A stretch of DNA of 64,000 nt from a virus (taxonomy: Duplodnaviria > Caudoviricetes), in IMG/VR virus record IMGVR_UViG_3300021964_009400. One strand, written 5' to 3'. The notes below the pieces were generated by a model. That model was given only the letters and a program-made list of their open reading frames with translations, had not been told where the DNA came from and did no database searches. Each line of letters starts with the position of its first letter. Position 1 is the first letter of the stretch. This document shows, one piece after another, positions 2 through 21,359 of this stretch. The position numbers and the translations under genes are program-made.

Positions 2-3000
2 GCAGAAAAAGATTTCTTTTTAGGACAGTTTTCTAAAACAGGCAATGCAAGATTTACAGTTGAAGATGTTTTAAGAGCTGCGAAAAGACAGTTTGATGAA
101 GATGATAACATATTACAATTCCAATTATTCTTAATACCATTTAATGCACAAGGAGATGAATTAACTTCTGGTAAAGTAGAAAAGATAACAATTACTTTTG
201 ATAAAGGAGATTTAACTTTAAGAAGGGGAGATGTTATTGGTGATATTAGAAAAGCGTTTGAATATTGTTTTGATTATTCAACCTTTGATGAAAGCACATC
301 AACTCTTTTAACTCATTATTTACATCTTGGAGAAGGTGATAATAAATTAATATCAACTTATGGTATTGATACAGAAACATTTTCAGAGTACGAATTTATA
401 AACGATACAAATGAAAGAAAAAAGATAAAAGAATCTAAATCCATTGTTTTAAAACTATACGAACCACTAGATGGTGCAATCGATGTAAATGATAAGATAT
501 GGATTTCTAAAATTCAATCTATACCATTAATAGACCAGATAACAATTATAGATGATGTAACTACAAATTGTATTCCTCTAACACCAAATTTAAGTTTAGA
601 GTTAAACGATGATATTGGTTATCAAATTTATGATGAATTGGTTGCAAGTGGTTCGACATCATCAGAATCAGTAATACAAGAATTTGTATCAGGTAGTGGA
701 TTTTCATTAGATACACTTCAGTTAGAATATACATCGGGTAGTGCAATACAATGGGGTAATTTTGTAAAATATTCATCTGCAAAAGAAAGAGTTGCAAACT
801 TCTATTACAAAATCAAGTTATTAGAATCATATAGAAGTAAACACGAGTTACTAGCAACTGCAACTGGTTCTGCAGGCTCAGTTTCAAGTCAAAACGAACA
901 AAAAAGAATACTTGGAAAGATATCAGAAATTAAACAAAACTTCGATGCATTTGAAAAACATCTTTATACAGTAAGTGGTTCATTACAATATCCAAAAAGT
1001 GGAAGTGTTGTTGGTGATATTAAACTTACTAATACTGGTAGTTTATTAAATCCAACTGGCTCTGATGCAATTAATTGGTATAACGATACTTATGCAACTG
1101 CATCTTTATATGATAGAAATAATACAGAAAGATTAGTAAATAATTTGCCTATTCATATACAAGAAGATGATAAAGGACAAGAGTTTGTTTTATTCTTTGA
1201 TATGATTGGACAGCATTTTGATATTTTATATCACTATATTAATAGATTATCAAAATCTAAAAAAGCTGAAAATAAATTTAAAGATGGAATTATAAGTGAT
1301 TTAATGTATGAAATGTTAAGTTCACTTGGTTGGGATGCTGATTTAGGAATATCATCTGAAACTCTTTGGGAATATGCATTTGGTGAACATTCAGATGGTA
1401 CTCAAGTTTCTACAATGTCAGGTAAAGATAGACAACAAGAAACATGGAGAAGAATTTTAAATAACTTACCTTATCTATATAAACACAAAGGTACTAAGAG
1501 GGCAATTCATGCAGCATTATCGATATATGGAATTCCAAATTCTATGTTAACAATAATGGAATTTGGTGGACCAAAAGATAACACCACTTCAAGATTAGTT
1601 AAATATACATACGATGATACAACATCTGCATTAAATATTTCTGGTTCTCAACAACTTATTATTCCTTGGAAAGCATATACTGGTTCTTTGTATCCAAGTT
1701 CTGTTGAAGTAAGAGTTGAAACTAATACAAAACAATCTCAAACATTACTTTCAAGTAGTGGTTGGAGTTTAGATTTAAATTACATATCGGGTTCAGATGC
1801 AAAATTACAATTAAATGTATTATCTGGTTCAACTTACTATTCAGAATCAACAGACCAATTTCCTTATTTTAATCAAGATTATACACAGATAGTTGTAAAT
1901 AAAACATCTGGTTCATCTACCACATTTGAAGTATTTGCAAAAGAAGGATTCCAAGAAAGAATTAGAAATCAAGTAAGTGCATCACTTACACTTACAAATC
2001 ATAGTTGGGATACCGGTACAGAATTATTAATTGGTGGTTTGGGTGTTAGTGGTAGTTCATTTACTGGTTCAGTAGATGAAATTAGATTATGGAAAACTCC
2101 ACTATCACAATCAAGAATTGATAATCATGCATTGAATGGAGATGCAATAGATGGTAACCATTCATCTTCCTCAACTGAAGATTTATTATTAAGAGTTGAT
2201 TTTGAACATCCACGAAATTTAGATTCAACTGGTAGTAATTGGAGAAACACACTTGTTTCAGCATCTATGGTTTCGGATGGATTAAGTTCATTATCAGGTT
2301 CATTAGAAAGTGTTTCCCCAATAACAACTTATGCAAACTTTATAACTGCATCTAATTTCCCATCTGCTTCATATCCATATGGATTTACATTTTATGATAG
2401 AAAAAATACATCAAATGTACCAAGTGTTGGTTTAAGTGTTGGTGATAAAATTAGGTTTGAAACACAAACTTTAGAATCAGATTTAAATTACAGAAGTAGA
2501 GCAACTAAAAAATCATATGACCAATCACCATTAGACTCGGATAAATTAGGATTATTCTTCTCACCAGCAAAAGAATTAAATCTTGACATTGTAAAAACAA
2601 TAGGAGATTTTAGTATAGATGATTTAATCGGTGACCCAAGTGATTATTATGAAGATAGTTATTCATCATTAAATAATTTTAGAAATTACTATTTTAGTAG
2701 ATATAATGTAAACTTCTCTGAATATATTCAATTAGTAAAGTATATTGATAAATCCTTATTTAAACTTTTAGAATCTCTTGTACCTGCAAGAGCCAAAGTT
2801 ACAACTGGTTTATTGATAGAACCTCACATGCTAGAGAGAAGTAAAATTAAAAGAACAAAACCTACTGCAGAAAATAAACAATATGAAACTTCAATTGGTA
2901 TTCAAGATAATTTAGTTGTAACATCATCAAAAGATGATTACTTAGTTGAACTTGATTTAAAAGAAGAAGTGTTCTTAAGTGGTTCAAAGGATTCATATGA

Positions 3001-3715: not shown

Positions 3716-3755
3716 TATTTATAGGTAATAAAAATTATTAAAAATATAAATCGTT

Positions 3756-3764
3756 ATATTTATA
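3756..3764 (+). promoter_or_regulatory. Putative late promoter motif ATATTTATA
   Basis: Exact motif 26 nt upstream of ATG 3791; recurs upstream of at least 11 structural-region genes. Confidence 0.6.
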
Positions 3765-3790
3765 TATTGTAACATAATAGGGAAAAAACT

Positions 3791-4414
3791 ATGGCATATT
3801 TAGATAATACAGAAATAACAGTAGATGCAATTCTTACTAAAAAAGGTAGAGAGAAACTTGCATCGGGTGAAGGTCTTAATATCACCAAGTTCGCTTTAGG
3901 TGATGATGAGATTGATTACACATTATACGAACCGGCACACCCAAAAGGTTCAGCATACTATGATGCAGCAATTAAAGCAATACCAATAACTGAAGCATCG
4001 CCAGATGAAACGCAAATTTTAAGATATAAATTAGTTACTCTTCCAAAGGGTACTACAAAAATTCCAAAGGTAGAATTTGGTGTACCATCTATTTCTGTAA
4101 ATCAGAATTCAGGTCAAGTTTCCCTTACACCAACTACATCACCAAGTGGAAATACACAAAGTGGATATACCGTAGTTTTATCAAATAAAAATGCAGGTAG
4201 TATTGTTGGAGCAGGTTTATCGGGTGTTGCAAGTTCAGTACCAACATTCTTAGGAGATGAAATAACTGCAACAGCAGCAATAGAGACAGGATTAACATTT
4301 ACATTTATACCTAATCCAAATATAACTGCTACAATTGCAACAACAATTACAGTATATGGTAATGAAACTGGAGGTTCAGCAACGATACCAGTAACAATAA
4401 CATATGTATCATAA
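3791..4414 (+). CDS. Virion structural protein, tail-collar-fibre-like N-terminus
   Basis: ILTKKGREKLASG..NITKFALGD resembles the N-terminus of phage tail-collar fibre proteins; Thr-rich C-terminus. Confidence 0.55.
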   Translation: MAYLDNTEITVDAILTKKGREKLASGEGLNITKFALGDDEIDYTLYEPAHPKGSAYYDAAIKAIPITEASPDETQILRYKLVTLPKGTTKIPKVEFGVPSISVNQNSGQVSLTPTTSPSGNTQSGYTVVLSNKNAGSIVGAGLSGVASSVPTFLGDEITATAAIETGLTFTFIPNPNITATIATTITVYGNETGGSATIPVTITYVS

Positions 4415-4434
4415 TTTAAAGAGGAAATAATAAA

Positions 4435-5664
4435 ATGGCACAAATACAAGGACAAGCAGGAGTAAATTTGACACAAGAGTTGGCAAATTATTTAGATGCC
4501 AGTGGTGGTAGTCTTACTTCAGAACAATTATCAACGATTATCAACCAATATCTTTCAGGTGGTGATAAACTAGGTGCAACTGGTGGTTCAATTTCAAATG
4601 GTATATATAAAAGATTTGGAGAATTTGACCAAGTAAGTGGAAAAGTACAAGTTGTAACTACTGGTCTTTGGAGTGGAGATACTGGTTCCTTAACTACATT
4701 TTTTACTTCATCTACACAAGCTTCAGCAAATAGTTCAAATTATTATGTAAATGTATATGATACTGCAGCTAATGATAATGTACAATTTGCAGTTGCATAT
4801 GGACATAAATTTGGTAGTGGTTCAGTATCACTTGCAAATGATGATACATCTACTTTAGCAACTAAAGCAACTTACGCACAATATAAATCAATTCTTTTAG
4901 ACCAAGATGATACTAAATTTGTAGTTCCTAACATTTCTGGTTCAACTCAAGAAATAGATGATATCTTTGTTATTAACTTATCAAGAGCAAGATACAAAGA
5001 GAAAATGGATGCAGGAAACTGGTCATTAACATTAAATGGAGAAAGTGGTTCATTTACATTCATTGATGATAGTGGAAAGAAATTTTCAGATACAGTTGGA
5101 AAAGCAGGTAGAGTATTTGATGTAGTAAAGGGTTCACTAAACTTAGGTTCAGAAAACGAAGCAACAATTGAATCAAAATATGCAAGTGGTTCCGATGCAC
5201 AAGGACAAGGATTTGGTAAATTTTATCCAGACCAAGGAATTATAATTCTCAACCCAAAGGCTATTCAAGATGAACTAAAAACATTTCCAAGAAATGCAGC
5301 AGGTGCAGTATCACAATCGTTATCATATGGAATTGCATCAGAAGCAAAAAATCATTTCTTATTAGAAAGTGCAATTTCAGGTGGAGGAGATTTTGAAGCA
5401 AGAAGAACAGAAAATGTTTCTACATCACACTATTTTGTAAGAGCAACGAATAGAGAATTTAACTTCTCAAATAACCCAACATTTGTAAGTGGTTCAGATA
5501 ATTCATTTGCTGAATCATCTTTTGAAAAAGACCCAAAAACATTTATTACAACTATTGGATTATATAGTGATTCAAACGAAATATTAGCAGTGGCTAAAAC
5601 ATCACAACCAATCGCTAAATCATTTGATAAAGAAGTATTAATCAAAGTAAAACTTGATTTCTAA
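4435..5664 (+). CDS. Virion structural protein (tail/baseplate)
   Basis: Ser/Gly-rich; C-terminal ITTIGLYSDSNEILAVAK..PIAK shared with the next gene; GAGG RBS; followed by terminator. Confidence 0.6.
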   Translation: MAQIQGQAGVNLTQELANYLDASGGSLTSEQLSTIINQYLSGGDKLGATGGSISNGIYKRFGEFDQVSGKVQVVTTGLWSGDTGSLTTFFTSSTQASANSSNYYVNVYDTAANDNVQFAVAYGHKFGSGSVSLANDDTSTLATKATYAQYKSILLDQDDTKFVVPNISGSTQEIDDIFVINLSRARYKEKMDAGNWSLTLNGESGSFTFIDDSGKKFSDTVGKAGRVFDVVKGSLNLGSENEATIESKYASGSDAQGQGFGKFYPDQGIIILNPKAIQDELKTFPRNAAGAVSQSLSYGIASEAKNHFLLESAISGGGDFEARRTENVSTSHYFVRATNREFNFSNNPTFVSGSDNSFAESSFEKDPKTFITTIGLYSDSNEILAVAKTSQPIAKSFDKEVLIKVKLDF

Positions 5665-5684
5665 AATTATTAAACTTTAATAAG

Positions 5685-5710
5685 AACCCCACTTCGAGTG
5701 GGGTTTTTTG
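5685..5710 (+). terminator. Rho-independent terminator
   Basis: Stem AACCCCACT-tcg-AGTGGGGTT followed by a T-run, just after stop 5664. Confidence 0.85.
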
Positions 5711-5717
5711 TTTTAAT

Positions 5718-5726
5718 ATATTTATA
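5718..5726 (+). promoter_or_regulatory. Putative late promoter motif ATATTTATA
   Basis: Immediately after the terminator, 18 nt upstream of ATG 5745. Confidence 0.6.
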
Positions 5727-5744
5727 TAGAGGAGCAATACTATC

Positions 5745-6884
5745 ATGTTAAAACCAATACCTAAATCGAGTATAAATCAAAGAACTTTTAAAGTTCACAA
5801 AAAGTTTATACAAACAGATGCAACTAATCCAATTTATATTGGTGCTTTATCTAGTGGTAGTGCATACGATTCTGGTTCAGAGGCAACTACAAATGGTGTT
5901 TCTAATCATTCTTTATATGCATCTATAAAATCTAAATATTATAGAAATGATGGTAATATATTTACCACCTATGGTAATTATGGTAATTTAGGACAAATTT
6001 CACAAGAAAGAATTATTGGTGGTCAAATTAGAGTTATTACAATTCCACAAAATAAAAAAGGATTAGGAATTAAAAAAGGTAGTGTACTTTTAACAGATAT
6101 AGATACATCAACTGTTTACAGAGATACTGGTGAAGGAAATATAGCATCTCTAACACCACGATACACCTTAACAGAACTTGATTTTAATACTGGTGTTATA
6201 ACAATTACTGATGCAGATGACCAGAATTTTACTGGTACCATAACAAGTATCGATTTTAATACAGGTAACTCAGTATTAACATTTGGAGTAGAAACCAAAG
6301 ATGTTACAATTACTCAACTTGATTTTAATACAGGTATTTTATTGACAGCTGAACCTTTAGATTTTGATGGTTTGGATATCGATGAGGCAAGATATGGAAA
6401 TATATTTTATTCAGATGGATTAATAGTTTTATCAGATGTTACAAGTTTAGTTTCATATAGTTTAGAGTATCGTTCAACTGAAACAATAACAGAACAAGAA
6501 GTTTTACTTACTGCAAAAGCAGGAGAGTTTAACTATTCTCAAAACCCATCGGCAGTTGAATCACAATTAAGTGGTTCATATGATTTTACAACTACTGCAA
6601 TACCAAATGTTTCTTCGGCAAGAACAAGAAAAATAAAAGAGTATAGTGATATAAAACGAAGAGAATTTTTCTCTGGTTCTTTTAACTCAACAATAAGTGG
6701 TAGTTGGGATGATTATTATGCATCTGCATCAGTAGATACAACTGGTTCATATTTATCAACATATATTAGTACAATTGGATTATATGATAAAAGTGGAGAT
6801 ATGGTAGCCGTTGCTAAACTACCAAAACCAATAAAGAATTTACCAGACTACGATGTAAATTTTATAGTAAGATTTGATGTATAA
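5745..6884 (+). CDS. Virion structural protein, paralogue of 4435..5664
   Basis: C-terminal ISTIGLYDKSGDMVAVAKLPKPIK..VRFDV parallels the preceding gene; internal LDFNTG repeats. Confidence 0.6.
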   Translation: MLKPIPKSSINQRTFKVHKKFIQTDATNPIYIGALSSGSAYDSGSEATTNGVSNHSLYASIKSKYYRNDGNIFTTYGNYGNLGQISQERIIGGQIRVITIPQNKKGLGIKKGSVLLTDIDTSTVYRDTGEGNIASLTPRYTLTELDFNTGVITITDADDQNFTGTITSIDFNTGNSVLTFGVETKDVTITQLDFNTGILLTAEPLDFDGLDIDEARYGNIFYSDGLIVLSDVTSLVSYSLEYRSTETITEQEVLLTAKAGEFNYSQNPSAVESQLSGSYDFTTTAIPNVSSARTRKIKEYSDIKRREFFSGSFNSTISGSWDDYYASASVDTTGSYLSTYISTIGLYDKSGDMVAVAKLPKPIKNLPDYDVNFIVRFDV

Positions 6885-6896
6885 CTAAAATTTGTT

Positions 6897-6905
6897 ATAT
6901 TTATA
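6897..6905 (+). promoter_or_regulatory. Putative late promoter motif ATATTTATA
   Basis: 19 nt upstream of ATG 6925. Confidence 0.55.
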
Positions 6906-6924
6906 TAAAAACAAAGATAATATT

Positions 6925-7143: not shown

Positions 7144-7148
7144 AAATT

Positions 7149-7352: not shown

Positions 7353-7355
7353 GAT

Positions 7356-7554: not shown

Positions 7555-8136
7555 TTGAGTTTACTTATAAACCATTACTCAAAATGGGCATTCGTTCATA
7601 TACCAAAAACTGGTGGAACATCATTAACAAACATTTTATTAAAAGATAAAAATACCGAACAAGTTTCGGTGCACGATTCTTTAAGAATGTTAGATGCTGA
7701 TTCCTCTTACTATATTTTTACAATAGTAAGAAATCCATTTACTCGAATATGTAGTGCTTTTGAAGATGAGTATAGAAAAGGAAATACCAAACACGATTTT
7801 AGCTTTTATCTAAAAAATATTGACGAAACAAATGTTTGGTTGTTACCTCAAAGTTACTTTATTGAGGCGGGAAAAACAAAAAATAAAAAAGTTTCATTCA
7901 TAGGAAGATATGAAAACTATGATACTGATTGTAATCAAATTTTACAAAAATTAAAATATTCAGAAAAAATTCCGCATCTTAACCGAAATCCAATATATGA
8001 TAGACATCCAAATTTAAATCAAGAACAGTATTATAGTAAAATATATTACACAGAAGATTGGATGATAGATTGGGTAAAAGAAAGGTACGAAAATGATTTT
8101 AAAATTCTTAACTATGGCATGGAATTACCAAGGTAG
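7555..8136 (+). CDS. Carbohydrate sulfotransferase (sulfotransferase family 2-like)
   Basis: 5'-PSB motif FVHIPKTGGTSL, 3'-PB motif VRNPFTRICSAF, FIGRYEN; TTG start. Confidence 0.8.
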   Translation: MSLLINHYSKWAFVHIPKTGGTSLTNILLKDKNTEQVSVHDSLRMLDADSSYYIFTIVRNPFTRICSAFEDEYRKGNTKHDFSFYLKNIDETNVWLLPQSYFIEAGKTKNKKVSFIGRYENYDTDCNQILQKLKYSEKIPHLNRNPIYDRHPNLNQEQYYSKIYYTEDWMIDWVKERYENDFKILNYGMELPR

Positions 8137-9544: not shown

Positions 9545-10683
9545 TTCATGTAATACCACATCATATTGGAAAAGGTTCATACGCTGCATGGTATGATGTT
9601 ATAGATTTTGAAACAGAAACTCAAGAAGTTAAATTTCATAAGTTTGATAATAGTGTTTCTATTGAAGATAAATACATTTTTGAAGAACAACCACCAAACA
9701 ATGATTATTTTAAATTATTAGAATCACATATACAAGAAATAAAACCAAAACCAAATGATTGGATTGTTTGTGATTTTCAATATTTAAATTACCAAGAACA
9801 ACCTGATAATGAAATAATTAAATTAGCAGAAAAATATAAAGTTAAATTTGTTTTCATAGATGATGATAATTATCAATGTTTTATGGATACTAAATATTTT
9901 ACATTTCACTCTAATAAATTTTATTTAAAGGATTCAACAAAGGTTTTCAACTATTACAGATATAGAATACCACACACAGATTTTTATAAAAATCTTGATA
10001 CTATTCACATTCCATTTTTTGATAACATAAGAGAAAAAAAATTAAATATGTTTGTTGGTGTGGATAAAAAAGAAAGATTTGAAGTATTTAAGCATATACA
10101 TAATATAGGTTTAGATAAGGATTCATATCTTGCATATAGTGCATTTACAAGCAATTATTCAGATGATGAGTTATCTTCGGATTTATTAAAATGGAAAAAA
10201 CAATATATACCAAAAATATTAGATACACCACTTAAAAAAAGCTCTCATGGTGGAGTAAATCCAGACATACCACCATTACCATATTGTATGAATAGTTATG
10301 TTTCTTGTATATTAGAAACACAACTAATGATTGATACTGATAATATAGAAATACACTTAAGTGAAAAAAGTTGGAATCCTTTTGCATCATTTAATATACC
10401 ACTTTATCTATGTGCACATGGAACTCGTAGATATTTAAAAAGACATGGATTTTGGTTGGCATCTGATTTATTTGATACAACTGAAAAAAACTCAAGAAGA
10501 GAAATAATTGAACAATTTAAATCTAATTTAGATATTATAAATAAAATGTCTAAGGAAGAACTACGAAAATATTATACAAATAATTGGAATAAAATCCAAA
10601 ACAATTATAATAAGTTGATGAAACAAAAATTTACATTTAGTAAAAAAAATTATATTCAACCAAAATATAAAACAATTTTATGA
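9541..10683 (+). CDS. Putative glycosyltransferase (GT10-like family, paralogue 1 of 4)
   Basis: C-terminal SCILET..HLSEKSWNPF..HGF motif shared with 30994, 34574 and 38243; 4-nt overlaps with both neighbours. Confidence 0.45.
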   Translation: MIHVIPHHIGKGSYAAWYDVIDFETETQEVKFHKFDNSVSIEDKYIFEEQPPNNDYFKLLESHIQEIKPKPNDWIVCDFQYLNYQEQPDNEIIKLAEKYKVKFVFIDDDNYQCFMDTKYFTFHSNKFYLKDSTKVFNYYRYRIPHTDFYKNLDTIHIPFFDNIREKKLNMFVGVDKKERFEVFKHIHNIGLDKDSYLAYSAFTSNYSDDELSSDLLKWKKQYIPKILDTPLKKSSHGGVNPDIPPLPYCMNSYVSCILETQLMIDTDNIEIHLSEKSWNPFASFNIPLYLCAHGTRRYLKRHGFWLASDLFDTTEKNSRREIIEQFKSNLDIINKMSKEELRKYYTNNWNKIQNNYNKLMKQKFTFSKKNYIQPKYKTIL

Positions 10684-13600
10684 TTATAAATAAGGTTTAT
10701 CATTTGGCAGATTTGCATATTAGAAATCTCCAAAGACATAAAGAATATCGTTTAGTATTCAAAAAGTTTTTAAAACAAGTTAAACAAGATAAAATAGAAG
10801 ATTCGGTTATTTATATCGCTGGTGATATTGCACATGCTAAAACAGAGATGTCACCAGAGTTAATAAAAGAAATTTCATGGTTTCTAACAGAATGTTCTAA
10901 ATTAAGAGAAACTATAATAATTACAGGTAATCACGATTGTAATTTAAACAATTCACATAGATTGGATGTTTTATCACCCATCGTTGAGAATTTAAATAAT
11001 CCAAGAATACATTACTTAAAAGATACTGGTGTTTATAATATCCATAATCTTACTTTCTGTGTGTATTCTATTTTAGATGATAAAGAAAACTGGCCAAAAG
11101 GAAAAGATGTAAATGGAGAAAATACAATCTGTTTATTTCATGGACCAGTAAACAAAGCACAAACTGATATTGGATATACAGTTTCCTCTAATTCATTCCA
11201 AGTGGATATGTTTGATGGATTCGATATGGCAATGTTAGGTGATATTCACAAGAGACAAACATTTGGTAAAGGATACGAGTGGGTTGCCTACGCAGGTTCA
11301 ATGATTCAACAGAATCATGGAGAACTACTCGAAAATCATGGTTACTTATTATGGGATATTCCCACTCGAACCTTTACTGAACATCATATACACAATGATT
11401 ATGGATTCTTAACAGTTGATGTAGTAAATGGTAAGATACCTCAATGGGTGTATGATGAAGTTGGTACTAAACTTCCAAAGTATCCAAGATTAAGATTGAG
11501 ATTCACAAGAACAGAAGCTTCTGATATGAAAAGAAGAATAACTGAACTAAAAAAGTTATTCAAAGTTGCTGAAGTTACTGTAACGAGAACCGATACAATC
11601 GGACAATTAAAAACAAATCAAAAGGTAAATAAAAACATTGTTGGTGATGTTAAAAATGAAACATTTCAAAACTCACTCATTCGAGATTACTTAGAAAGAC
11701 AGTATCTATTAGAAAACGAAGAATTAGATAAGATACAAGAAATAAATTCAGAATTAAATTCACAGATAGATGATTCAGATTCAATGGGTAATATTCTGTG
11801 GACACCAAAAACTTTTGAATTCTCTAATATGTTTTCATATGGAGAAAATAATTTAGTTCGATTTGATAAAGCACAAGGTATTATGGGTATCTTTGCTCCC
11901 AACGCATCAGGTAAATCTTCTATGTGGGATGCTTTATCTTTCTGTATCTATGATAAAACTTCTCGTACAACCTCATCTAAAAACATTTTAAATAATCGTA
12001 GGGATAACTTTTATTGTAAGTTTAACTTTGAGATAGATGGAATAAATTACTTTATTGAAAGACGTGCTAAGTGGACAAGAAAGCAAACCAATCTTAAAGT
12101 AGATGTATCTTTTTGGAGAGAAACTGGTGGAGTTATAGAATCACTCAATGGAGAACAACGAAGAGAAACTAACAAGAACATTGAAAAGTATTTAGGTAAG
12201 TTTGAGGATTTTGTACTAACAACACTTTCACTACAAGGAAATAATGCTTTATTTATTGATAAATCACAATCGGAAAGAAAAGAAATTCTTTCTCAATTTA
12301 TTGGAGTAGATATCTTTGATAAATTATATCAAAAGGCAAGTGATGAAAATAGGGATAATGCAACACTTATCAGAAAATTCAAGTCTGATGATTTTACACA
12401 AAAATTAGCGGACATCGACACTGATTTAAAAGAAAACAAAAATGAATATAAATTAATAGAATTAAGTCAAAAAGCATTAAAAGAAGAAGAAGAACTTTTA
12501 AACAAAAAGATTATATCCCTAAACGAGAAAATCGTTAAGTTGAATGCTGATAGTGGAGTTTCAATCGAAGAATTAGAAAAGAGATTAGGAATCCTCGAAA
12601 ATAAAAAAGGAGATATTGAAACCTCGAAAAGTTCTATACAAGATAGGATTACTCATAGAGAAGAATTACAAATTCAATTAGAAGAAATCTTAGATAAATT
12701 TGATGAAGAAGATTTAGAAGAAGGAATTACAAAATTAAAAATATTTAAAAAAGATTTATCTAACAATGATTTAGAAATTCAAAAAATTTCTATTAAACTA
12801 GAAACATTATACGAAAGAAAAGACCATTTAGATTCTCACAAATATAATGAAGATTGTGATGTTTGTATGGAAAATTCTAAATCTATTTTAGAAACAAAAG
12901 ATGAAGTTAATACTAAAATAAAAGAAAATGAAGAAACTCTACAAGAGTTTGAAAAGCAAAAGTTAAATTTAAATATTGAAATAGATTCTTTAAAAGATTA
13001 CGAAAAAGAATGGAGTAATTTCCAAGAAGCAAAAGAAAAAGAAGATAAGATAGATAGAGAGATATCTCAACTTATTAACAAGTTATCAACAATTGAAACT
13101 GAAGAATTACGAAATTCACAACAGATTACCCAGCAAGACCAACTTATAAATGAATATTATAAGAACGAAGAACAGATTATTAAGAATAAAGAAATAAGAA
13201 ATGAAATCAAAGGAGTACGAGAAAAACTAAATCTTGTAAAAGATGAATTAAAAGATGTAAACTCAAATATTCTTAAATTAAATGGTAAAGTATCAGCATT
13301 ACAAAATCAAAAAGAAACAATCGAAGATAGAATACAAGAAGTAAAAAATTTAGAAGAACAATCTAAGTTATTTGATTTTTACTTAAATGCACTTTCAAAA
13401 GATGGTGTATCTTATGAGTTGATTGAAAAATCATTACCGATGATTGAAGGTGAGGTAAATAATATCCTTGCGCAAATTGTAGAGTTTGGAATGCAACTTG
13501 AAATGGATGGTAAGAACATTAATGCATATCTTGTGTATGGTGACCAAAGATGGAGTTTGGAAATGTGTAGTGGTATGGAAAGGTTTATTAGTGGTTTGGC

Positions 13601-13838
13601 AATCAGAGTTGCTCTAATCAACGTATGTAACCTTCCAAGACCAAATTTCCTTGTTATAGATGAAGGATTTGGTACATTGGATAGTGAGAACCTACAATCT
13701 TTATTTATGTTGTTTACATACCTTAAAACTCAGTTTGATTTCGTTATGGTGATTTCACACATTGACTCGATGAGAGATGTTGTAGATGGTCTTATAGAGA
13801 TTAAAAAAGAAAAAGGATTTTCCCAAGTTAAGTTTTAA
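10680..13838 (+). CDS. Fused SbcD-SbcC (Mre11-Rad50; T4 gp47-gp46-like) recombination nuclease
   Basis: Metallophosphoesterase motifs DLH, GD, GNHD, FHG, GDIH. Then Walker A APNASGKSS, coiled coil with CDVC zinc hook, signature CSGME and Walker B VIDEGFGTLD, all in one frame. Confidence 0.9.
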   Translation: MIINKVYHLADLHIRNLQRHKEYRLVFKKFLKQVKQDKIEDSVIYIAGDIAHAKTEMSPELIKEISWFLTECSKLRETIIITGNHDCNLNNSHRLDVLSPIVENLNNPRIHYLKDTGVYNIHNLTFCVYSILDDKENWPKGKDVNGENTICLFHGPVNKAQTDIGYTVSSNSFQVDMFDGFDMAMLGDIHKRQTFGKGYEWVAYAGSMIQQNHGELLENHGYLLWDIPTRTFTEHHIHNDYGFLTVDVVNGKIPQWVYDEVGTKLPKYPRLRLRFTRTEASDMKRRITELKKLFKVAEVTVTRTDTIGQLKTNQKVNKNIVGDVKNETFQNSLIRDYLERQYLLENEELDKIQEINSELNSQIDDSDSMGNILWTPKTFEFSNMFSYGENNLVRFDKAQGIMGIFAPNASGKSSMWDALSFCIYDKTSRTTSSKNILNNRRDNFYCKFNFEIDGINYFIERRAKWTRKQTNLKVDVSFWRETGGVIESLNGEQRRETNKNIEKYLGKFEDFVLTTLSLQGNNALFIDKSQSERKEILSQFIGVDIFDKLYQKASDENRDNATLIRKFKSDDFTQKLADIDTDLKENKNEYKLIELSQKALKEEEELLNKKIISLNEKIVKLNADSGVSIEELEKRLGILENKKGDIETSKSSIQDRITHREELQIQLEEILDKFDEEDLEEGITKLKIFKKDLSNNDLEIQKISIKLETLYERKDHLDSHKYNEDCDVCMENSKSILETKDEVNTKIKENEETLQEFEKQKLNLNIEIDSLKDYEKEWSNFQEAKEKEDKIDREISQLINKLSTIETEELRNSQQITQQDQLINEYYKNEEQIIKNKEIRNEIKGVREKLNLVKDELKDVNSNILKLNGKVSALQNQKETIEDRIQEVKNLEEQSKLFDFYLNALSKDGVSYELIEKSLPMIEGEVNNILAQIVEFGMQLEMDGKNINAYLVYGDQRWSLEMCSGMERFISGLAIRVALINVCNLPRPNFLVIDEGFGTLDSENLQSLFMLFTYLKTQFDFVMVISHIDSMRDVVDGLIEIKKEKGFSQVKF

Positions 13839-14013: not shown

Positions 14014-14045
14014 ATATTTATAAATATTATTTGAAGATATTTATA
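14014..14045. promoter_or_regulatory. Divergent promoter region: palindromic TATTTATAAATA plus second ATATTTATA
   Basis: Palindrome 14015-14026 gives the motif on both strands; second copy 14037-14045 is 21 nt before ATG 14067. Confidence 0.6.
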
Positions 14046-14066
14046 TAAAGAAATTAGAAAATCTTT

Positions 14067-17000
14067 ATGGCAATAATAAAATCATTTGCACCATTCCAAA
14101 ATCTAACGAACTTTCAAGTGTTCGAAAATGATACTTTGTCTACCTCTGAATATTTTAGAATTACAGAATTAAGCGAAACTTTAACAGGTGGAAAAAATGG
14201 ATTTTTAATTGAAGGTTCTGAATTTTTAAAAGAAACAACAGAGGTAAAAATAGAAATACTTGATGTTGAAGGAAATCCAATATATTTTGAGCCAGGAAAG
14301 GGTGCACCTGATTATTATGAAGGAAACTCTACATTAGTTTCTGTTCATGTGTATGATGATACACCAATTGGTATTGGAAAAATTACAATTTTAGGTGAAT
14401 TAAAAAGTGTTTTAGGAGAGGAGAATGCAGTTGTTGATATACCCCAAGAATGGAAGGGTGTATATAATGTCAAATGGGAACGACAAATACAAATAAATAA
14501 AAATATTGCAAATGAAACAATTGTAAGATTTTATAAAAGACCATTAGTAACGATTTCAGAAATAGTAAAACCAGTATTTAGTAAAACAATAAATGATACA
14601 ACAGATACTGGTAGTGTAAATGGATTTCCTTTACAACCACCATTAGGTCAAAACTTATCAGAGTGGAGAGCGGGTACAAATTATTTATTACAAAGAACAT
14701 CAGGTAGTTGGGATAGTGATGTTGATGAAAATGTTATAAATATTACTATAACTAAAGATGGTAATGGAGATGTTTACAATAATGAAACTGGTTCTATATA
14801 CACGGCATCTCAATTTCCAAATCAAACTCCAGCTACACAATCAGTACTTAGTGCAACAATTATAGAAGTTCTAAATGATACAGATGTAATAATTGATATT
14901 CCATATGTTAGTTCAAGTTTAGTACAAAATATTTCTGATGAGGCATTTTCAGTATCATATCAAGATATAGAAAACGAAACAACAAGTGAAACTGCTATTA
15001 CAGGTTCTTTTGCAAAGATTGATATTACACAACTAAAAACATTTGTTGGTGATGTTGCAAGAGTAAAGATATTTAGAAAATCAAGAAACGCAGTTGGTGA
15101 TTTCCAATTTGTACAAGAAGCGAAATTAGAATCTCAAGAATTACTAAGAGATGTAACAACTACAACAGATACAGAAGTATTTTATGGAAGATTATCAACC
15201 GATAACCTTTCTACATATTGGGAAACTTCAAATAGTGACCATCCAATAACAGTTGATTCTTCTCAGCTATTTAGAGCTGCAAAAATAGATTACAATAATG
15301 ATAGTGGTAGTGTACAACAATTAATAACTTCTCAATCAATAAATGTATCAAAAGATGTTGAATATACATTAGAATTCAAAACTCTTTTAAGTGGTTCAAT
15401 AGATGATTCAAATAAATCTATAAGAGCATTTTTTAGTGCATCAAACTTTACACAAGATTTTTTAACAGTAAGTGGTTCTGCAATTTACCAATCAAGACAA
15501 GATATATCACAAAATATAATATTACAAAATTCAGGTAGTGCAAAATTAGTTTTTGAAGTTCAAGGAGATGATTGGTACATATCAAATATATCTTTAAGAA
15601 ACGCACAAGATACTTCATTCTCACCAGATGAGTTTACAATCATACAAGATATACCGAGAAAAACTGCAACTGAAACTTTTGATTTTAGATTTGAGTTTTA
15701 TGATATAAATAATAATTTTATACCAGTAGAAGTAAAAGCAACAAAAGAATTTGATGGTGGTAACGATTTTCCAACGAGTGGTAAATTATTTACTTTTGAA
15801 TCAGATAGAAACGCATTTAGATTTTCAAGTGGTTCAATAGGTAATCCACCATTTCAACAAATACAATTTAAAACATCACAACAAAACCTTACAGGCACAA
15901 CAACTTACGCATCTGCTGCATTTGATGAAGATGGTAATTATATAGACCCAAGTTCTTATGGTGGTGATTATCCTGGTGGTTTAACAAGTATTACTCCAGC
16001 AGGTTCTATAATTACAATAGCAAACTTTAGTGGTAGTGAAGATGATGTTGTAGTTGGTTCTATTATTTATACTGCTTCACTAGATGGATTAGAAGAATTT
16101 GAAACTGTATATAGATTAGAAGATGGTGATAATGCACCTCAACTTATAGTAACTTCTAATGCAAATCAATTTATATACGAACCAACAACTCTTTCACCAA
16201 AACCAAGTGGACAAAGTATAACTGTAAGAGCACAGAGAAAAAACTTAGCATCTTTAGTAACTCCTATAACTGTTAATAGTGGTAGTAATAAACCAGCGTT
16301 AACATTTGTAGATACAGTAAATGGAATAGATACTTATACTATCTCTGCAACTCAATTTTCATCTAACTCATTTGAATCTAATTCATTTGAGGAAGTAACA
16401 TATGAATTTACTGGTTCAGATATTTTTGGAAACGAACAAACAGATGAAATAACATTATCTAAGGTAATAAATTTTGATGCAGTTTCTATTGTTTTAACAA
16501 ATGAATCAACATCTTTTCCAGCAAAATCAACTGGTGAAATTTTAGGAGATTTAATACCATCAAGTGGTTCGGTACAAATGTTTATTGGTGGAAATCAAAT
16601 TGAACATGATGATGAAATTGGTGATAGAACAAAAAATACATTTAACATAACATCTTCAATTGGTGATAATGTAACTCCAACAGATACAACTCCAAATACT
16701 TCAAATTATTCTATATCAGCATTTGAAACTACAAAAGATAGTGGTTCATTAACATTAACAATTGATTATCTTGCTGGAGATGGTATTACATCACAATCAT
16801 TTCAAAAGATTGTTTCATATACAAAATCTAAAAAAGCAGTTCCAACTGTCTTAACAAAAGTATCACCATCAACACAAACGATTAATTCAAGTTCTGCCTT
16901 ATTTGAAACTCCTCAAACTATGGAGGTAATTGTTCAAGAAGGTGGTGATGAGTATTCTTATGATAGTAGTTTAACAGGTGGTGGTGATATAAACGCAAGA

Positions 17001-20000
17001 AAATTTGTAATAGATTCATTATCTGTTAATGTTGGTTCTGCCTCTTTTGATGATAATATTATTACTTTATTTACAACATCGACTGTAGATGATATTCCAG
17101 AATTTACTGATGTAACTAATGGATTAACTGGTTCTGCATTTCTTAATTATGTAAATTCTGAAGGAACTTATGTAACTGGTTCAAGAGTTAGATTTGATTT
17201 ATCAGTTTCTAAAATTGGGGTTGATGGTGTAAATGGTGCAAGTGGTTCAAATGCAAGAGCAGTATCTCTTTCATCAGATAAATACGCAATAGTATATGAT
17301 GGTGATGGTAATCTACATCCATCAAATCAAAACTTTACACTTAATGGTTCTGCACAAAACTTTAACACACCTGAATTCCAATTCTTAAGTGGTGGAGCAG
17401 TAATACACGATTTCGCAACTACTTCTGAAGTTGTAATATCATCTTCTGGTTATCCATCAGCTGGAACTTCAATTATTTATGAAGTAAGAACAAGAGAACA
17501 AGGTGGTTCTTATGAAGGTGTGTTTGATAATATAGATGTGTTTGCAGTTCAATCTGGTTCTGATGCTTTCACAGTATTTTTAACTAATGAAGCCCATGTA
17601 TTCTCTGCAACATCAGAATCGGTAGTAACAAGTGATTTATCAGATGGTGCATTTGAGGTTAGATTTTTTAGAGGAGGAGAACAATATAATAGTGGTTCAA
17701 CTGGTAAAACATATAGCGTTTCAGCAACTACATCAAATATAATATTATCAGAGTCACTTGAATCAAATAATCAAGCTAAATTTACTCCAACATCTATAAG
17801 TGGAGATAGTGGTAGTGCATCGATTACAATTACAGATAATAACACATCAAAAACATTTGATAAACAATATTCATTTACATTATCAAAAGAAGGTATTGCT
17901 GGACAAGATGGACAAGATGGTTCAGCAGGAGAAGATTTTAAAGCAGTAAAACTAACTTCTGCAAACTACATTATTTCATATAATGCAGCAGGCAGTTCAC
18001 CATCACCAAGTGGTACAATAACATTAACTGCAACTTCACAAAACTTTACAAATGCATTTTTTAAATTTACAGGCGAAGGTATAACAGATGAAACTTCTTA
18101 TACAGATGGTAGTGGAGCAAACTCCGATACATTCGATTTTTCAGTACCTTCATCATATTTTTCAACTCCAAAAGATATTAGAGTTGGTGTAGCAGAAGGA
18201 AATCAATCTGAATTAGCATTTGATACAATTACAATTACTGCAGTTCAGCCTGGTTCAGATGGACAAGATGGAGACCCTGGCGATGCTGGTGCTGATGCAT
18301 ATACTGTTATTGTTACAAATGAAGCCCATACACTTCCAACTACAAATACTGGTACCGTAACCTACACTGGTTCGGGCACTTCGATTATAGTTTATAAAGG
18401 TGCAACTGAATTAAATAGTGTAACAAGTACACCAACTAGTGGACAATTTAAAGTAACTGCAACTGCAACAAATATTACTGCAGGTTCACAAACTGTAACT
18501 GGTAATCCATCGGTATTTGCAAATGCAAGTTCAATTACTTCTACTACCGCACAAATTTCATTTGCAATTAATATTGAAAATCAAGTAACTATTACAAAAA
18601 TACAAACTTTTAGTAAATCAATACAAGGAGACGATGGAGAAGATGGAGAAGATGGACAAGATGGACAAGATGGTGGAACTGGACCTCAAGGAGATGCTGG
18701 TTTAAGAACTGCACAAGGTATGGTACATTATAATACTACTTCAGCTACTGCACCAAGTAGTCCTAATGATGGTACAACTTCATTTAATTTTAGTACTGGT
18801 GTAATGAGTGGTATGAGAAGTGGGTGGCAAATGGGTACACCTACTTATGAAGCTGGTAACTCAAATAAATATTGGTATGCAACCTTTACTTCAGTAGAAA
18901 ATTCATCTGGTGCAGGAGTTGGTACAAATTCTAATAACTCATTTGGTACAGTAACACAAGCAATTAACTTTACTGGTTTAGTTTCATTTACTGCAACAGA
19001 TACAATTGGTGATGGTACTGATAATTTATCTTTTGGTGTTGCAGGTTCAACTTTAATTAATGGTGATAACATTTCAACTGGTCGAATTATATCTACAAAT
19101 TATGTAACTGGTTCTGGCGATGGGTTTACAAATACTGGTACAGAATTTAGTTTAGATGAAGGATTACTTGCTTCTAAAAACTTTACAATAAAACCAAACG
19201 GTAGTGCTTTCTTTAAAGGAGATTTGACTGGTGCAAGTGGTACATTCTCTGGTACTGTTCAAGTTGGTGGAACTACTTTAACAACTGGTAATACATTAAA
19301 TTCTAACACAACTAAAGACGATGTAAATTTAGGTAATGTAGATAATCAATCTGCAGCAACAATACAAGCAGGGACAACTGCTGCTAATGTTGGTTTAGGT
19401 AATGTTCAAGACTTAAATGCTCAAAACCAAGCACAGACAGGATTAATAGCAGGTACTACAATTACTGGTGGTGGTATAACATTAAATGCTGGTGGTAACA
19501 TAAAAGGTGGACAAACTGCATTTAATACTGGTACTGGTTTCTTTTTAGGATATAGTAGTGGATATAAATTTTCAATCGGAGATGGTTCTACTAAGGGTAT
19601 AACTTGGGATGGAAGTACTTTAACTATTGGTGGTAATGCACAGATTGGTGTAGATTCTATTTCTACTATACAATCAAATGCAAATAGTGCCTTACAAAGT
19701 GGAGATAATATTTCAGTATTAACTAATAATTCAGGCTACCAAAATAATAGTGCTGCAAAAACTGCAGGAAGTGTTGGTGGTTGGACAATTGATTCAAATG
19801 CAATTTATAGAGGAACCGAATTAGCAGATAATACTTATGGAACTTCAACTGGTCAAATAACTTTAGGTGCAGGTTTTATAGGTGCAAAAGAATTTAAAAT
19901 CAGCGCAGCTGGTGTTGCTTCATTTAAGGGTGGAGTTGAAAATGGTGCAACATTAGGTAATTGGAGTGTAAGTGGTGGGGATTTAGTAGATTCTACTGGT

Positions 20001-21359
20001 GTAATACAGTTAGACCCGAATGATAAGGCTATTAGATTAAAAGAAACAGATGGAACTGTTAGAGTAACATTAAGTTCAGCTGATTTAGCAAATATATCAC
20101 CAACTAGAGATATTGATGCGAGTAACGCTGCACTTAATGAAGAATTAATATTTAATTCTAATTCAACTTATTCAGGTCTAAATACATCATTTAATGGTGG
20201 TTCTTCATTGAGTTATAGTCAATTGACGATAGGAACAAGTGCAAAAACTTATGGTGCTACAAATAAAGAATTAAATGAAGCAACTAGTAGTGCATATACA
20301 CATGGTGGAGGGGGGTTACCAATTATAATACCAATTGGAAGTTCTGATAGGTCATCTAATAACCACACAGGTAGAATAGAAATTAATGCACCAACTGCTT
20401 CTCCTTCTTATTATCTATACTTTGATGAAGCAGAAATGACATCAACTTTAAAATTAAAATATGAAGTTCTATTAAAAAATACAGGTGGTTCATCAGCTGG
20501 GGCATTTTCACCAACTGGTAGTGCAGTTACAATTGATGTTGCTTCAATAAATACGACAGGTGGTGATGAATTAGTAGTTAGAAAAGGAGATTTTGTAAGC
20601 ATTGGTCAACCTGCTGGAGCTAATTATCAAGCAATAAAATATTGGGAAGATTATGGGTTTGAATGGAATGATTTCACAATAGAAACCACAGTAGCAGATG
20701 CTGCAGCTGGAGATTATAAAGTAAGATTAACATGGTTTATAGATTATGAACTTTCTGTTAAAGCAACCCAAACAGTAAATCCTTTGACATATCCTGGTCC
20801 TTATATGCAAGTTGAAGTTGATGTATTTGTACAAGATTTAAGTAATACACCTGTTACATTTGGTACATTTAATCAAGAAGTTGCAGTTGGATTAAATGGA
20901 GTACAAGTTTCGGGTGTATCGGGTTCAGTTTTAATAGGAGAAGTAAATGATTCAGGTGTAATGTCAGTTTATGGTAATGCCCTTGTGACTGGTAAATTAA
21001 CTGCCAATACAACTGCTTTATCTGATGAAAGATTAAAAAGTAATATACAAGATATACCAAATCCACTTGATATAATTGATAGTATTCAACCTCGTTCATT
21101 TAAATGGAGAAACAATGTAAATCCAGATGAATTTAGAGAAAACTCTTTTGGATTTATTGCACAAGAGATGACAGGTAGTTTACCACAATTTGTTAGCGTA
21201 GAACACCAACCAATAGGATATATAGAAAATATATTAACAATAGACCAAACTCCTTTAATAGCATTAAATACTGCTGGTATAAAAGAATTGGTAACTAAAA
21301 TAAGTTCATTAGAAACTAAAATAGAACAACTAGAGGCACAGATAAGTGGTTCTGAATAG
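14067..21359 (+). CDS. Long tail fibre/spike protein with collagen-like linkers and C-terminal intramolecular chaperone (peptidase S74)
   Basis: Repeated modules starting (A/S)DA(F/Y)TV.(L/V)TNEAH; Gly-X-Y tracts; Gly/Thr-rich distal region; C-terminal SDERLKSNI...GFIAQE...coiled coil. Confidence 0.8.
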   Translation: MAIIKSFAPFQNLTNFQVFENDTLSTSEYFRITELSETLTGGKNGFLIEGSEFLKETTEVKIEILDVEGNPIYFEPGKGAPDYYEGNSTLVSVHVYDDTPIGIGKITILGELKSVLGEENAVVDIPQEWKGVYNVKWERQIQINKNIANETIVRFYKRPLVTISEIVKPVFSKTINDTTDTGSVNGFPLQPPLGQNLSEWRAGTNYLLQRTSGSWDSDVDENVINITITKDGNGDVYNNETGSIYTASQFPNQTPATQSVLSATIIEVLNDTDVIIDIPYVSSSLVQNISDEAFSVSYQDIENETTSETAITGSFAKIDITQLKTFVGDVARVKIFRKSRNAVGDFQFVQEAKLESQELLRDVTTTTDTEVFYGRLSTDNLSTYWETSNSDHPITVDSSQLFRAAKIDYNNDSGSVQQLITSQSINVSKDVEYTLEFKTLLSGSIDDSNKSIRAFFSASNFTQDFLTVSGSAIYQSRQDISQNIILQNSGSAKLVFEVQGDDWYISNISLRNAQDTSFSPDEFTIIQDIPRKTATETFDFRFEFYDINNNFIPVEVKATKEFDGGNDFPTSGKLFTFESDRNAFRFSSGSIGNPPFQQIQFKTSQQNLTGTTTYASAAFDEDGNYIDPSSYGGDYPGGLTSITPAGSIITIANFSGSEDDVVVGSIIYTASLDGLEEFETVYRLEDGDNAPQLIVTSNANQFIYEPTTLSPKPSGQSITVRAQRKNLASLVTPITVNSGSNKPALTFVDTVNGIDTYTISATQFSSNSFESNSFEEVTYEFTGSDIFGNEQTDEITLSKVINFDAVSIVLTNESTSFPAKSTGEILGDLIPSSGSVQMFIGGNQIEHDDEIGDRTKNTFNITSSIGDNVTPTDTTPNTSNYSISAFETTKDSGSLTLTIDYLAGDGITSQSFQKIVSYTKSKKAVPTVLTKVSPSTQTINSSSALFETPQTMEVIVQEGGDEYSYDSSLTGGGDINARKFVIDSLSVNVGSASFDDNIITLFTTSTVDDIPEFTDVTNGLTGSAFLNYVNSEGTYVTGSRVRFDLSVSKIGVDGVNGASGSNARAVSLSSDKYAIVYDGDGNLHPSNQNFTLNGSAQNFNTPEFQFLSGGAVIHDFATTSEVVISSSGYPSAGTSIIYEVRTREQGGSYEGVFDNIDVFAVQSGSDAFTVFLTNEAHVFSATSESVVTSDLSDGAFEVRFFRGGEQYNSGSTGKTYSVSATTSNIILSESLESNNQAKFTPTSISGDSGSASITITDNNTSKTFDKQYSFTLSKEGIAGQDGQDGSAGEDFKAVKLTSANYIISYNAAGSSPSPSGTITLTATSQNFTNAFFKFTGEGITDETSYTDGSGANSDTFDFSVPSSYFSTPKDIRVGVAEGNQSELAFDTITITAVQPGSDGQDGDPGDAGADAYTVIVTNEAHTLPTTNTGTVTYTGSGTSIIVYKGATELNSVTSTPTSGQFKVTATATNITAGSQTVTGNPSVFANASSITSTTAQISFAINIENQVTITKIQTFSKSIQGDDGEDGEDGQDGQDGGTGPQGDAGLRTAQGMVHYNTTSATAPSSPNDGTTSFNFSTGVMSGMRSGWQMGTPTYEAGNSNKYWYATFTSVENSSGAGVGTNSNNSFGTVTQAINFTGLVSFTATDTIGDGTDNLSFGVAGSTLINGDNISTGRIISTNYVTGSGDGFTNTGTEFSLDEGLLASKNFTIKPNGSAFFKGDLTGASGTFSGTVQVGGTTLTTGNTLNSNTTKDDVNLGNVDNQSAATIQAGTTAANVGLGNVQDLNAQNQAQTGLIAGTTITGGGITLNAGGNIKGGQTAFNTGTGFFLGYSSGYKFSIGDGSTKGITWDGSTLTIGGNAQIGVDSISTIQSNANSALQSGDNISVLTNNSGYQNNSAAKTAGSVGGWTIDSNAIYRGTELADNTYGTSTGQITLGAGFIGAKEFKISAAGVASFKGGVENGATLGNWSVSGGDLVDSTGVIQLDPNDKAIRLKETDGTVRVTLSSADLANISPTRDIDASNAALNEELIFNSNSTYSGLNTSFNGGSSLSYSQLTIGTSAKTYGATNKELNEATSSAYTHGGGGLPIIIPIGSSDRSSNNHTGRIEINAPTASPSYYLYFDEAEMTSTLKLKYEVLLKNTGGSSAGAFSPTGSAVTIDVASINTTGGDELVVRKGDFVSIGQPAGANYQAIKYWEDYGFEWNDFTIETTVADAAAGDYKVRLTWFIDYELSVKATQTVNPLTYPGPYMQVEVDVFVQDLSNTPVTFGTFNQEVAVGLNGVQVSGVSGSVLIGEVNDSGVMSVYGNALVTGKLTANTTALSDERLKSNIQDIPNPLDIIDSIQPRSFKWRNNVNPDEFRENSFGFIAQEMTGSLPQFVSVEHQPIGYIENILTIDQTPLIALNTAGIKELVTKISSLETKIEQLEAQISGSE
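18627..18698 (+). repeat. Collagen-like 9-nt repeat (GDDGEDGEDGQDGQDGGTGPQGDA)
   Basis: In-frame ggaXaagat repeats within the tail fibre; shorter tracts near 17900 and 18260. Confidence 0.8.

Follow-up and report, generated by a model that had tools for sequence, protein, structure and literature searches.

A clade-wide excess of the tripeptide [S/T]-G-S in distal tail proteins of Far-T4 phages, a candidate O-glycosylation sequon

The outer baseplate and tail-fiber proteins of an uncultured marine "Far-T4" phage (Duplodnaviria; Caudoviricetes; IMG/VR record IMGVR_UViG_3300021964_009400) contain the tripeptide [S/T]-G-S about six times as often as expected by chance. The stretch analyzed here, referred to as the window, comprises 64,000 nucleotides of this record, which is 84 kb long and 41% complete according to CheckV; the window has 30% GC and every gene lies on the + strand. 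Its head genes, including those for the portal, large terminase, prohead protease and major capsid protein, are T4-like in Pfam and PHROGs scans. The capsid protein has 51-57% identity to its counterparts in LR756508 (an uncultured 484-kb phage), Microcystis phage Mel-JY01 and Flavobacterium phage immuto, 39% to that of Rhodothermus phage RM378, and 27% to those of T4-like phages (Aeromonas). It was reported that the capsid, portal and terminase of Far-T4 phages group with RM378, apart from T4 and the cyanophages (Roux et al., 2015; PMC4360716). Because the capsid is nearer to those of RM378, immuto, Mel-JY01 and LR756508 than to those of T4-like phages, the phage is, judged by this protein, a member of the Far-T4 clade.

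The gp25-like and gp6-like wedge genes are located 5' of the window and are followed by open reading frame 1 (ORF1), a 207-amino acid (aa) protein, p4435, p5745, small ORFs, a sulfotransferase, a GIY-YIG endonuclease, a primase, SbcCD and the tail fiber, an order that is identical in Mel-JY01 and immuto. ORF1 occupies the gp7 position, 3' of the wedge genes, and has homologs in Mel-JY01, immuto and LR756508. The window holds the C-terminal 1237 aa of this distal baseplate protein (2..3715), with a LamG-like domain (Laminin_G_3, under the Pfam cut-off) and 22 [ST]GS motifs, 15 of them SGS; the full protein has 1738 aa (G000 18547-23763), and every motif falls within its C-terminal 1020 aa. The Thr-rich 207-aa tail protein (3791..4414), conserved in Mel-JY01, immuto and LR756508, has no [ST]GS and provides an internal contrast. 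The baseplate-periphery protein p4435 (4435..5664; 409 aa) carries six motifs, at residues 83, 128, 168, 204, 251, and 352, and p5745 (5745..6884; 379 aa) carries another six. These two proteins are paralogs through a common C-terminal domain of about 110 aa (32% identity, E 1e-9); four places in Mel-JY01 match p4435, so the module has been reused there. The tail fiber (14067..21359; 2430 aa), which ends in an S74 intramolecular chaperone, has 26 [ST]GS motifs, including 16 SGS, and 21 of the 26 are located in its first 1250 aa.

Expected counts were calculated from the amino acid composition of each protein, and 5000 within-protein shuffles that kept this composition were made for comparison. 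In ORF1, p4435, p5745 and the fiber pooled, 41 SGS were found where 5.65 were expected and 19 TGS where 5.0 were expected; SGS is the most over-represented non-singleton tripeptide in these proteins and TGS is the next. Individually, the SGS counts were 15 in ORF1 (expected 1.3, accompanied by 7 TGS and 5 SAS), 5 in p4435 (0.6), 5 in p5745 (0.37), and 16 in the fiber (3.3, with 10 TGS), and only two SGS occur in the rest of the window (about 15,900 aa). For [ST]GS in ORF1, 22 were observed against 2.5 expected, and the best of the shuffles reached 11. The highest SGS counts among the shuffles were below the observed ones in ORF1 (9 vs 15), p5745 (4 vs 5), and the fiber (12 vs 16), and equal to the observed 5 in p4435. 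The enrichment has a direction: it holds for [S/T]-G-S and not for NGS or DGS, and SGT and TGT occur about as often as expected. The residue before Gly-Ser is Ser in 41 cases and Thr in 19, with Ala, Asp, Gly and Asn at 4-6 each, and the residue after Ser-Gly is Ser in 41 cases and no other single residue in more than six.

These counts bear on the initial annotation of this DNA, which had described SGS as dense in ORF1, p4435, p5745 and the fiber and absent from SbcCD (1052 aa) and a 1785-aa polyprotein; the tripeptide enrichment calculated per protein, with shuffles, agrees on the first point, and both of the latter proteins indeed have zero SGS. The motifs it placed in the S74 chaperone region were also located, as TGS at fiber residue 2369 and SGS at 2427. 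Its ORF1 count of 15 was right, and the length of the protein is corrected to 1738 aa. The SAS that it counted alongside is weakly over-represented (9 observed, about 3.7 expected from composition). Enrichment had further been proposed for the neck and the capsid. In the gp13-like neck or head-tail adaptor protein (62815..63966) it is marginal, with three [ST]GS against 0.29 expected (p about 0.003), two of them within the first 17 residues. For the major capsid protein (61049..62659) the proposal fails, with no SGS, one TGS, and two [ST]G[ST] against 1.3 expected; this protein forms the negative part of the pattern.

The excess is a property of the proteins and not of the DNA that encodes them. 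The 60 motifs are encoded by 21 distinct 9-mers in which both AGT and TCN codons are used for Ser. No motif arises in the other two sense frames of the four genes and only two in the three antisense frames, and the commonest motif 9-mers occur in frame in these four genes and are otherwise missing from both strands of the window. The codons AGT-GGT are preferred inside the motif, a preference attributable to a genome-wide codon-pair bias, as Ser-Gly pairs favor AGT and Gly-Ser pairs favor GGT in unrelated genes too. A DNA-level signal was thus rejected on account of the variety of 9-mers, the in-frame occurrence and the origin of the codon preference, and a low-complexity or compositional artifact was rejected on the strength of the shuffles and of the flanks, in which Ser/Thr is not enriched. 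[S/T]-G-S is a signal selected at the protein level and confined to distal tail proteins. Over the whole window, Ser before Gly is encoded by AGT in about two thirds of cases, though AGT makes up 21-27% of Ser codons, and GGT accounts for about 84% of the Gly codons that precede Ser, compared with 56-64% overall.

The same excess is found across the clade. In 80 IMG/VR loci of the clade, 1903 [ST]GS were counted against 384 expected. The p4435 family has more than 4357 homologs, which form 1850 clusters at 50% identity, and 151 diverse members contain 685 [ST]GS against 105 expected, with [ND]GS at 67 vs 72 and SGT at 69 vs 46. In Mel-JY01 and immuto, the homologs of ORF1, p4435, p5745 and the fiber are enriched and the remainder of each proteome is at expectation, apart from the tail sheath of immuto, which is enriched as well. 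RM378 has a weaker excess in one structural cluster, and that of LR756508 is weak. The enriched proteins (ORF1, the p4435/p5745 pair, the fibers and the immuto sheath) have no detected mutual similarity. No excess was found in the T4 baseplate and fiber proteins (7 vs about 8) or in the baseplate regions of two jumbo phages, LR756511 (6 vs 4.1) and Stenotrophomonas phage CM1 (10 vs 6.2), and a generic trait of phage fibers was rejected on the basis of these three outgroups. The motif excess is therefore a clade-wide Far-T4 property and not general to tails. A literature search returned no paper that links SGS to phage glycosylation and none that describes the motif, and glycosylation goes unmentioned in the Far-T4 paper (PMC4360716); the signal is real and unpublished.

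The surroundings of the motif were analyzed over 1585 unique contexts, in which hydrophobic residues are over-represented 1.4-1.55x at positions -2, -1 and +1 and Pro at +1 is reduced to 0.14x. Asp and Glu are at 0.43-0.94x background from -6 to +6, and basic residues are depleted too. The extended form of the motif is hydrophobic-hydrophobic-[S/T]-G-S-hydrophobic and is not followed by Pro. Some sites are conserved family-wide, namely p4435 residues 128, 232 and 352, and TGS 333-335 of p5745 is invariant or nearly so in 28 homologs. Beside these, much site turnover is seen, as 97 alignment columns of the p4435 homologs hold the motif somewhere. At variable sites the tripeptide is swapped as a unit, for example SGS for KDS or SAA, and therefore the backbone does not require Gly there. 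Conservation is higher for Ser inside the motif than for other Ser (0.61 vs 0.43), the third-position Ser being the most conserved Ser, and Gly is the best-conserved position of the motif (93-100% at conserved sites).

Mapping of the motifs on predicted structures, which the initial annotation had suggested, was carried out for p4435 and p5745. In the AlphaFold2 model of p4435 (predicted local distance difference test, pLDDT, 88), all six motifs are predicted in loops, hairpin turns or strand edges; longer loops hold two of them, and the other four are in hairpins between strands or at the edges of strands. In that of p5745 (pLDDT 77), two motifs are placed in a loop or short turn and four in, or bordering on, a segment of low confidence. 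A Foldseek search of the p4435 model against the PDB gave nothing at E<=1e-3, and the best VIA-align match, to a phi812 baseplate chain (Z 5.0 over 67 residues), is no clear fold match.

An 18-kb sugar island (21367-39697) starts 8 nt past the fiber stop codon. For its annotation and that of the other genes, 40 of the 47 ORFs of the window were scanned against Pfam, and the other seven (head module, 56235-63966) against PHROGs only. The first island gene encodes a DUF6734 protein (21367..22398; PF20508), whose model has structure neighbors in the ESM Atlas that carry Glyco_transf_8 or Nucleotid_trans domains (TM 0.54-0.56). With this GT8-like predicted fold, it is probably a GT-A glycosyltransferase (GT) and is a GT8-like candidate lead; DUF6734 is common in phages and Bacteroidota. 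Domain searches then identified a Methyltransf_24 protein (23627-24403), a GT2-like protein (24396-25250), two fusions of GT7N/C and LamG domains (25490-26911 and 27315-28784; Glyco_transf_7N and 7C, E 1e-15 to 1e-19), a small cytidylyl/adenylyl-transferase resembling glycerol-3-phosphate cytidylyltransferase and RfaE domain II (26908-27318), a twitch radical S-adenosylmethionine (SAM) protein in mid-island (28809-30257; NF033640, E 4e-106), and a LamG protein (30254-30988). Three nucleoside diphosphate (NDP)-sugar epimerase/dehydratases and an RmlC-like epimerase follow (32428-37705), together with a split thiamine diphosphate (ThDP)-dependent E1/transketolase-like pair (33945-34589 and 37705-38253); the remainder of the island (22411..39697) also includes four ORFs without assigned function. 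The ThDP pair brackets one of the function-unassigned ORFs and two NDP-sugar epimerase/dehydratases, with the RmlC-like epimerase just 5', and the block looks like a pathway to a branched-chain or two-carbon-extended deoxysugar. Outside the island, two possible glycan-tailoring enzymes were noted. One is the sulfotransferase inside the baseplate cluster (7555..8136; Sulfotransfer_2, E 2e-15), the gene for which is also present in 82%-identical relatives; the other is a 571-aa Nol/NodU-like O-carbamoyltransferase upstream of the window (L196, G000, 4611-6326; phrog_1601, E 2e-123).

A promoter-like ATATTTATA box lies 23-75 nt 5' of many structural genes and also before the fiber gene and two island genes. 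Boxes of the form TATTTATA, usually ATATTTATA, occur in short non-coding gaps 5' of start codons at 3757, 5719, 14038, 23604, 25263, 39795, 45208, 48173, 50376, and 62774, at a distance of 23-48 nt from the start codon at nine of these ten listed sites and of 227 nt at 25263. The copies at 14038 (fiber) and at 23604 and 25263 (island) are ATATTTATA, and the boxes precede structural genes and the polyprotein. The TATTTATA box is probably the late promoter of the clade, and since a promoter-like box is common to both sets of genes, co-expression of the island with the structural genes is suggested.

Mel-JY01, immuto and RM378 possess sugar islands too, and no island gene was found in common with Mel-JY01 or immuto at E<1e-5 except for generic epimerase similarity. 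The GT7-LamG protein occurs in this phage and, in both copies, in its closest large relative G003, and the GT7 domain alone occurs in G002; in a search whose positive control worked, it was absent from G001 (complete, 274 kb), Mel-JY01, immuto and LR756508. As G001, Mel-JY01 and immuto show the motif excess despite having no GT7-LamG, and LR756508 shows a weak one, this patchy distribution ruled out GT7-LamG as the enzyme that reads the motif. GT7-LamG does not track the motif across relatives. A GT4 of about 470 aa is, by comparison, present in all six complete clade genomes (immuto, Mel-JY01, RM378, LR756508, G001 and G002) and also in G005; its immuto copy spans 49128-50570. Among 50,697 phage records, it was found in exactly the seven that carry a p4435 homolog; a dissociation of GT4 from the motif was sought in the same records, and no independent contrast was found. 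A second GT4 is common to immuto and Mel-JY01, and a GT2 is common to the same two phages with a weak match in RM378. In Mel-JY01, the annotation divides the clade GT4 (L005 33441-34932; Mel-JY01 83441-84932) between two ORFs that differ in frame, either because of a frameshift or sequencing error or because the gene is truly split.

The nearest solved relative of the clade-core GT4 is B736L of chlorovirus NY-2A (PDB 3OY2; E 7e-14 over about 320 residues), a GDP-mannose-binding GT-B enzyme whose acceptor is not known (PMC9614988). This clade-core GT4, and not GT7, is the best candidate for the motif-reading enzyme. The DNA of immuto carries fdPreQ1, and a glycosylated nucleoside was not reported (PMC10516641); the GT core and island of immuto are for this reason unlikely to serve DNA modification.

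Several further genes of the window were noted. A ribosomal protein S21 homolog is encoded in the head module (59295-59618) and is annotated in Mel-JY01 too. The 1052-aa ORF at 10680-13838 fuses an SbcD-like (Metallophos) and an SbcC-like (AAA_23, Walker B) part, and this fusion is kept in Mel-JY01 and LR756508. The 1785-aa multi-domain ORF at 39825-45182 has cytidylyltransferase-like, HD and poly(A)-polymerase-head (CCA-type) domains, and its N-terminal part matches a stand-alone gene in Mel-JY01.

Residue specificity, spread over dissimilar proteins, the mixture of conserved and turned-over sites, and restriction to exposed parts of the tail are together what is expected of a trans-acting recognition signal, and O-glycosylation is the most economical signal of this kind because sugar genes are present. 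We therefore propose, at roughly even probability, that [S/T]-G-S is an O-glycosylation acceptor sequon for a phage-made sugar coat, a proposal in which the sugar attachment, the enzyme and the modified residue are all deduced. The exposed fibers and distal baseplate proteins would carry the tag at their strand-loop-strand junctions, where a soluble phage-encoded GT would recognize a hydroxyl-bearing turn of the virion protein in the cytoplasm. The first sugar would go on one of the two Ser/Thr residues of the motif, of which the third-position Ser is the more conserved. Assembly and decoration of the glycan would next fall to lineage-specific sugar islands, in this phage to the 18-kb block behind the fiber gene, probably co-transcribed with it, with its GT8-like DUF6734 protein, GT2-like protein, two GT7-LamG proteins, nucleotidyltransferase, radical SAM protein, NDP-sugar enzymes and ThDP enzyme, plus the sulfotransferase of the baseplate cluster. 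The more specific version, in which a B736L-like GT4 writes the sequon in a strand-loop-strand context and fast-exchanged sugar islands elaborate it into a lineage-specific glycan coat on the baseplate periphery and fibers of Far-T4 phages, is held at somewhat less than even probability, and it is within this version that the GT8-like protein, GT7-LamG, branched-sugar pathway and sulfotransferase would be the rapidly exchanged set of this phage. The initial annotation had likewise concluded that the phage O-glycosylates its own virion surface; the selected distal-tail motif and the sugar island behind the fiber uphold that view as the best single explanation, and its proteoglycan analogy, its role for GT7 and its capsid target are not upheld.

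Known systems resemble this proposal to different degrees. Phage-encoded virion glycosylation has a precedent in mycobacteriophages (Freeman et al., 2023, Cell Host Microbe, as cited in PMC12582341). Like them, this phage encodes GTs and sugar-nucleotide enzymes (island 21367-39697). The mycobacteriophage GTs are said to act in the cytoplasm on the structural proteins of the phage itself, with GT sets that vary among phages, and their targets are reportedly capsid and tail-tube subunits for which no short sequon was defined. Here, in contrast, the capsid is not enriched, the candidate targets are distal baseplate and fiber proteins, and a strict tripeptide is involved, all of it read from sequence alone. 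The Aah/TibC heptosyltransferases carry out cytoplasmic O-glycosylation at many sites of the beta-rich surface proteins AIDA-I and TibA, and the Ser/Thr that they modify is located where a short loop joining two strands begins (PMC3835316, citing Charbonneau 2012). The context of the Far-T4 motif may resemble this strand-loop-strand acceptor, given the hydrophobic residues at -2, -1 and +1 and the four of six motifs predicted in hairpins or at strand edges of the p4435 model. The autotransporter substrates, however, have no sequence consensus and the enzyme family differs, and the Pfam scan of 40 window ORFs revealed no heptosyltransferase domain of the Aah/TibC family. Chloroviruses and giant viruses similarly decorate virion proteins by means of virus-encoded sugar-nucleotide pathways and soluble GTs (PMC9614988), but the characterized chlorovirus glycans are N-linked, at atypical Asn sites of the capsid protein, and the hosts are eukaryotic algae.

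Bacteroidota possess a general O-glycosylation system with the sequon D-(S/T)-(A/I/L/V/M/T), which is periplasmic and lipid-linked. It resembles the present case in having a three-residue sequon, and the Far-T4 clade has hosts among the Bacteroidota (Flavobacterium, Rhodothermus). The motif differs, and the Far-T4 clade also infects a cyanobacterium (Mel-JY01). Moreover, a periplasmic and lipid-linked system cannot reach virions that are assembled in the cytoplasm.

Several points weigh against O-glycosylation. Gly is the best-conserved residue, and the loop or turn location with hydrophobic flanks fits a purely structural hairpin motif equally well. The motif is not avoided in non-virion proteins, and the sugar islands could have another role, the remodeling of glycans on the host surface. 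As for the proposed enzyme, the clade-core GT4 was not found in the 84-kb record of this phage (41% complete), and LR756508 has the GT4 yet only a weak motif excess. The co-occurrence of GT4 and motif amounts to a single phylogenetic contrast, and because both are synapomorphies of the clade, it is not independent evidence.

The main rival is accordingly structural: S-G-S may be the favored tight turn or beta-arc of this lineage, used unmodified for folding or subunit packing. We consider this unlikely on balance, though it deserves more weight than any other alternative. It agrees with the 93-100% conservation of Gly at conserved sites, with the modeled positions in turns, loops or strand edges (four of those in p5745 falling in or next to the low-confidence segment), with hydrophobic flanks such as occur at strand ends, with the persistence of p4435 sites 128, 232 and 352 across deep divergence, and with the phylogenetic confounding of the GT link. 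It does not explain why Asn and Asp, which are better turn formers, are not enriched at the first position ([ND]GS 67 vs 72 in the p4435 family) and are rare at the third in the four proteins (SGD 5, and SGN not in the listed spectrum, vs SGS 41). The excess also spans proteins and folds without detected similarity and is missing from the baseplate and fiber sets of T4 and the two other outgroups; in addition, at variable sites the whole tripeptide switches to KDS or SAA as a unit, and motif Ser residues are conserved above other Ser residues.

A function of another kind is rather improbable. The motif could carry another modification, such as phosphate, glycerol-phosphate, a directly added sulfate, an acyl group or a cross-link, or it could form a turn that binds a ligand or ion in host recognition. 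The specificity for hydroxyl residues fits it equally well, and candidate enzymes are at hand in the sulfotransferase within the baseplate cluster, the nucleotidyltransferase resembling glycerol-3-phosphate cytidylyltransferase and RfaE domain II, and the carbamoyltransferase upstream. The enzymes that co-occur with the motif are nevertheless sugar enzymes, and no modification-specific kinase or transferase was identified as clade-core.

In eukaryotic proteoglycans, the linkage is made at Ser-Gly flanked by acidic residues, with xylosyltransferase (GT14), B4GALT7 (GT7), the linker enzymes of GT31 and GT43, and sulfotransferases. The initial annotation had modeled the phage system on this, with a Ser-Gly acceptor, a chain extended by GT7 and sulfation by a family-2 sulfotransferase. 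The domains it named were confirmed by the searches described above, and the likeness is real as far as a Ser beside Gly, two GT7N/C-LamG proteins and one Sulfotransfer_2 protein go; the closest large relative, G003, even retains both GT7 copies. The analogy itself breaks down, as acidic residues are depleted around the motif, a Ser is needed after Gly and a Ser or Thr before it, GT14, GT31 and GT43 had no Pfam match in the 40 of 47 window ORFs scanned (the record being 41% complete), and GT7-LamG is absent from the motif-rich G001, Mel-JY01 and immuto as well as from LR756508. As a general mechanism the proteoglycan-type model is contradicted, and its probability is very low. Finally, an artifact of Ser/Gly-rich composition, internal repeats or a DNA-level signal deserves virtually no credence, for although the enriched proteins have 11-12.5% Ser and 7-10% Gly and GGT and AGT dominate the codons inside the motif, composition-keeping shuffles fall short of the observed counts (with the tie at 5 SGS in p4435), the context varies between sites without Ser/Thr enrichment in the flanks, and the codon preference is genome-wide while the top 9-mers are confined to the reading frame and missing from the opposite strand.

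Should [S/T]-G-S prove to be structural only, it would still amount to a strong rule of sequence, as yet unexplained, in a large tail-protein family. If it is an O-glycosylation sequon, it would be the first to be defined in any phage, glycosylated sites on thousands of tail proteins of uncultured phages would be predictable from sequence alone, the large and variable sugar islands of Far-T4 phages would be explained, and a function would be suggested for the chlorovirus B736L family. The question is directly testable, as immuto, Mel-JY01 and RM378 are cultured. For this abundant aquatic clade, a sequon would also point to a glycan layer over the apparatus of host recognition, where it could affect adsorption, stability, aggregation in seawater, and shielding from host proteases and receptor mimics.

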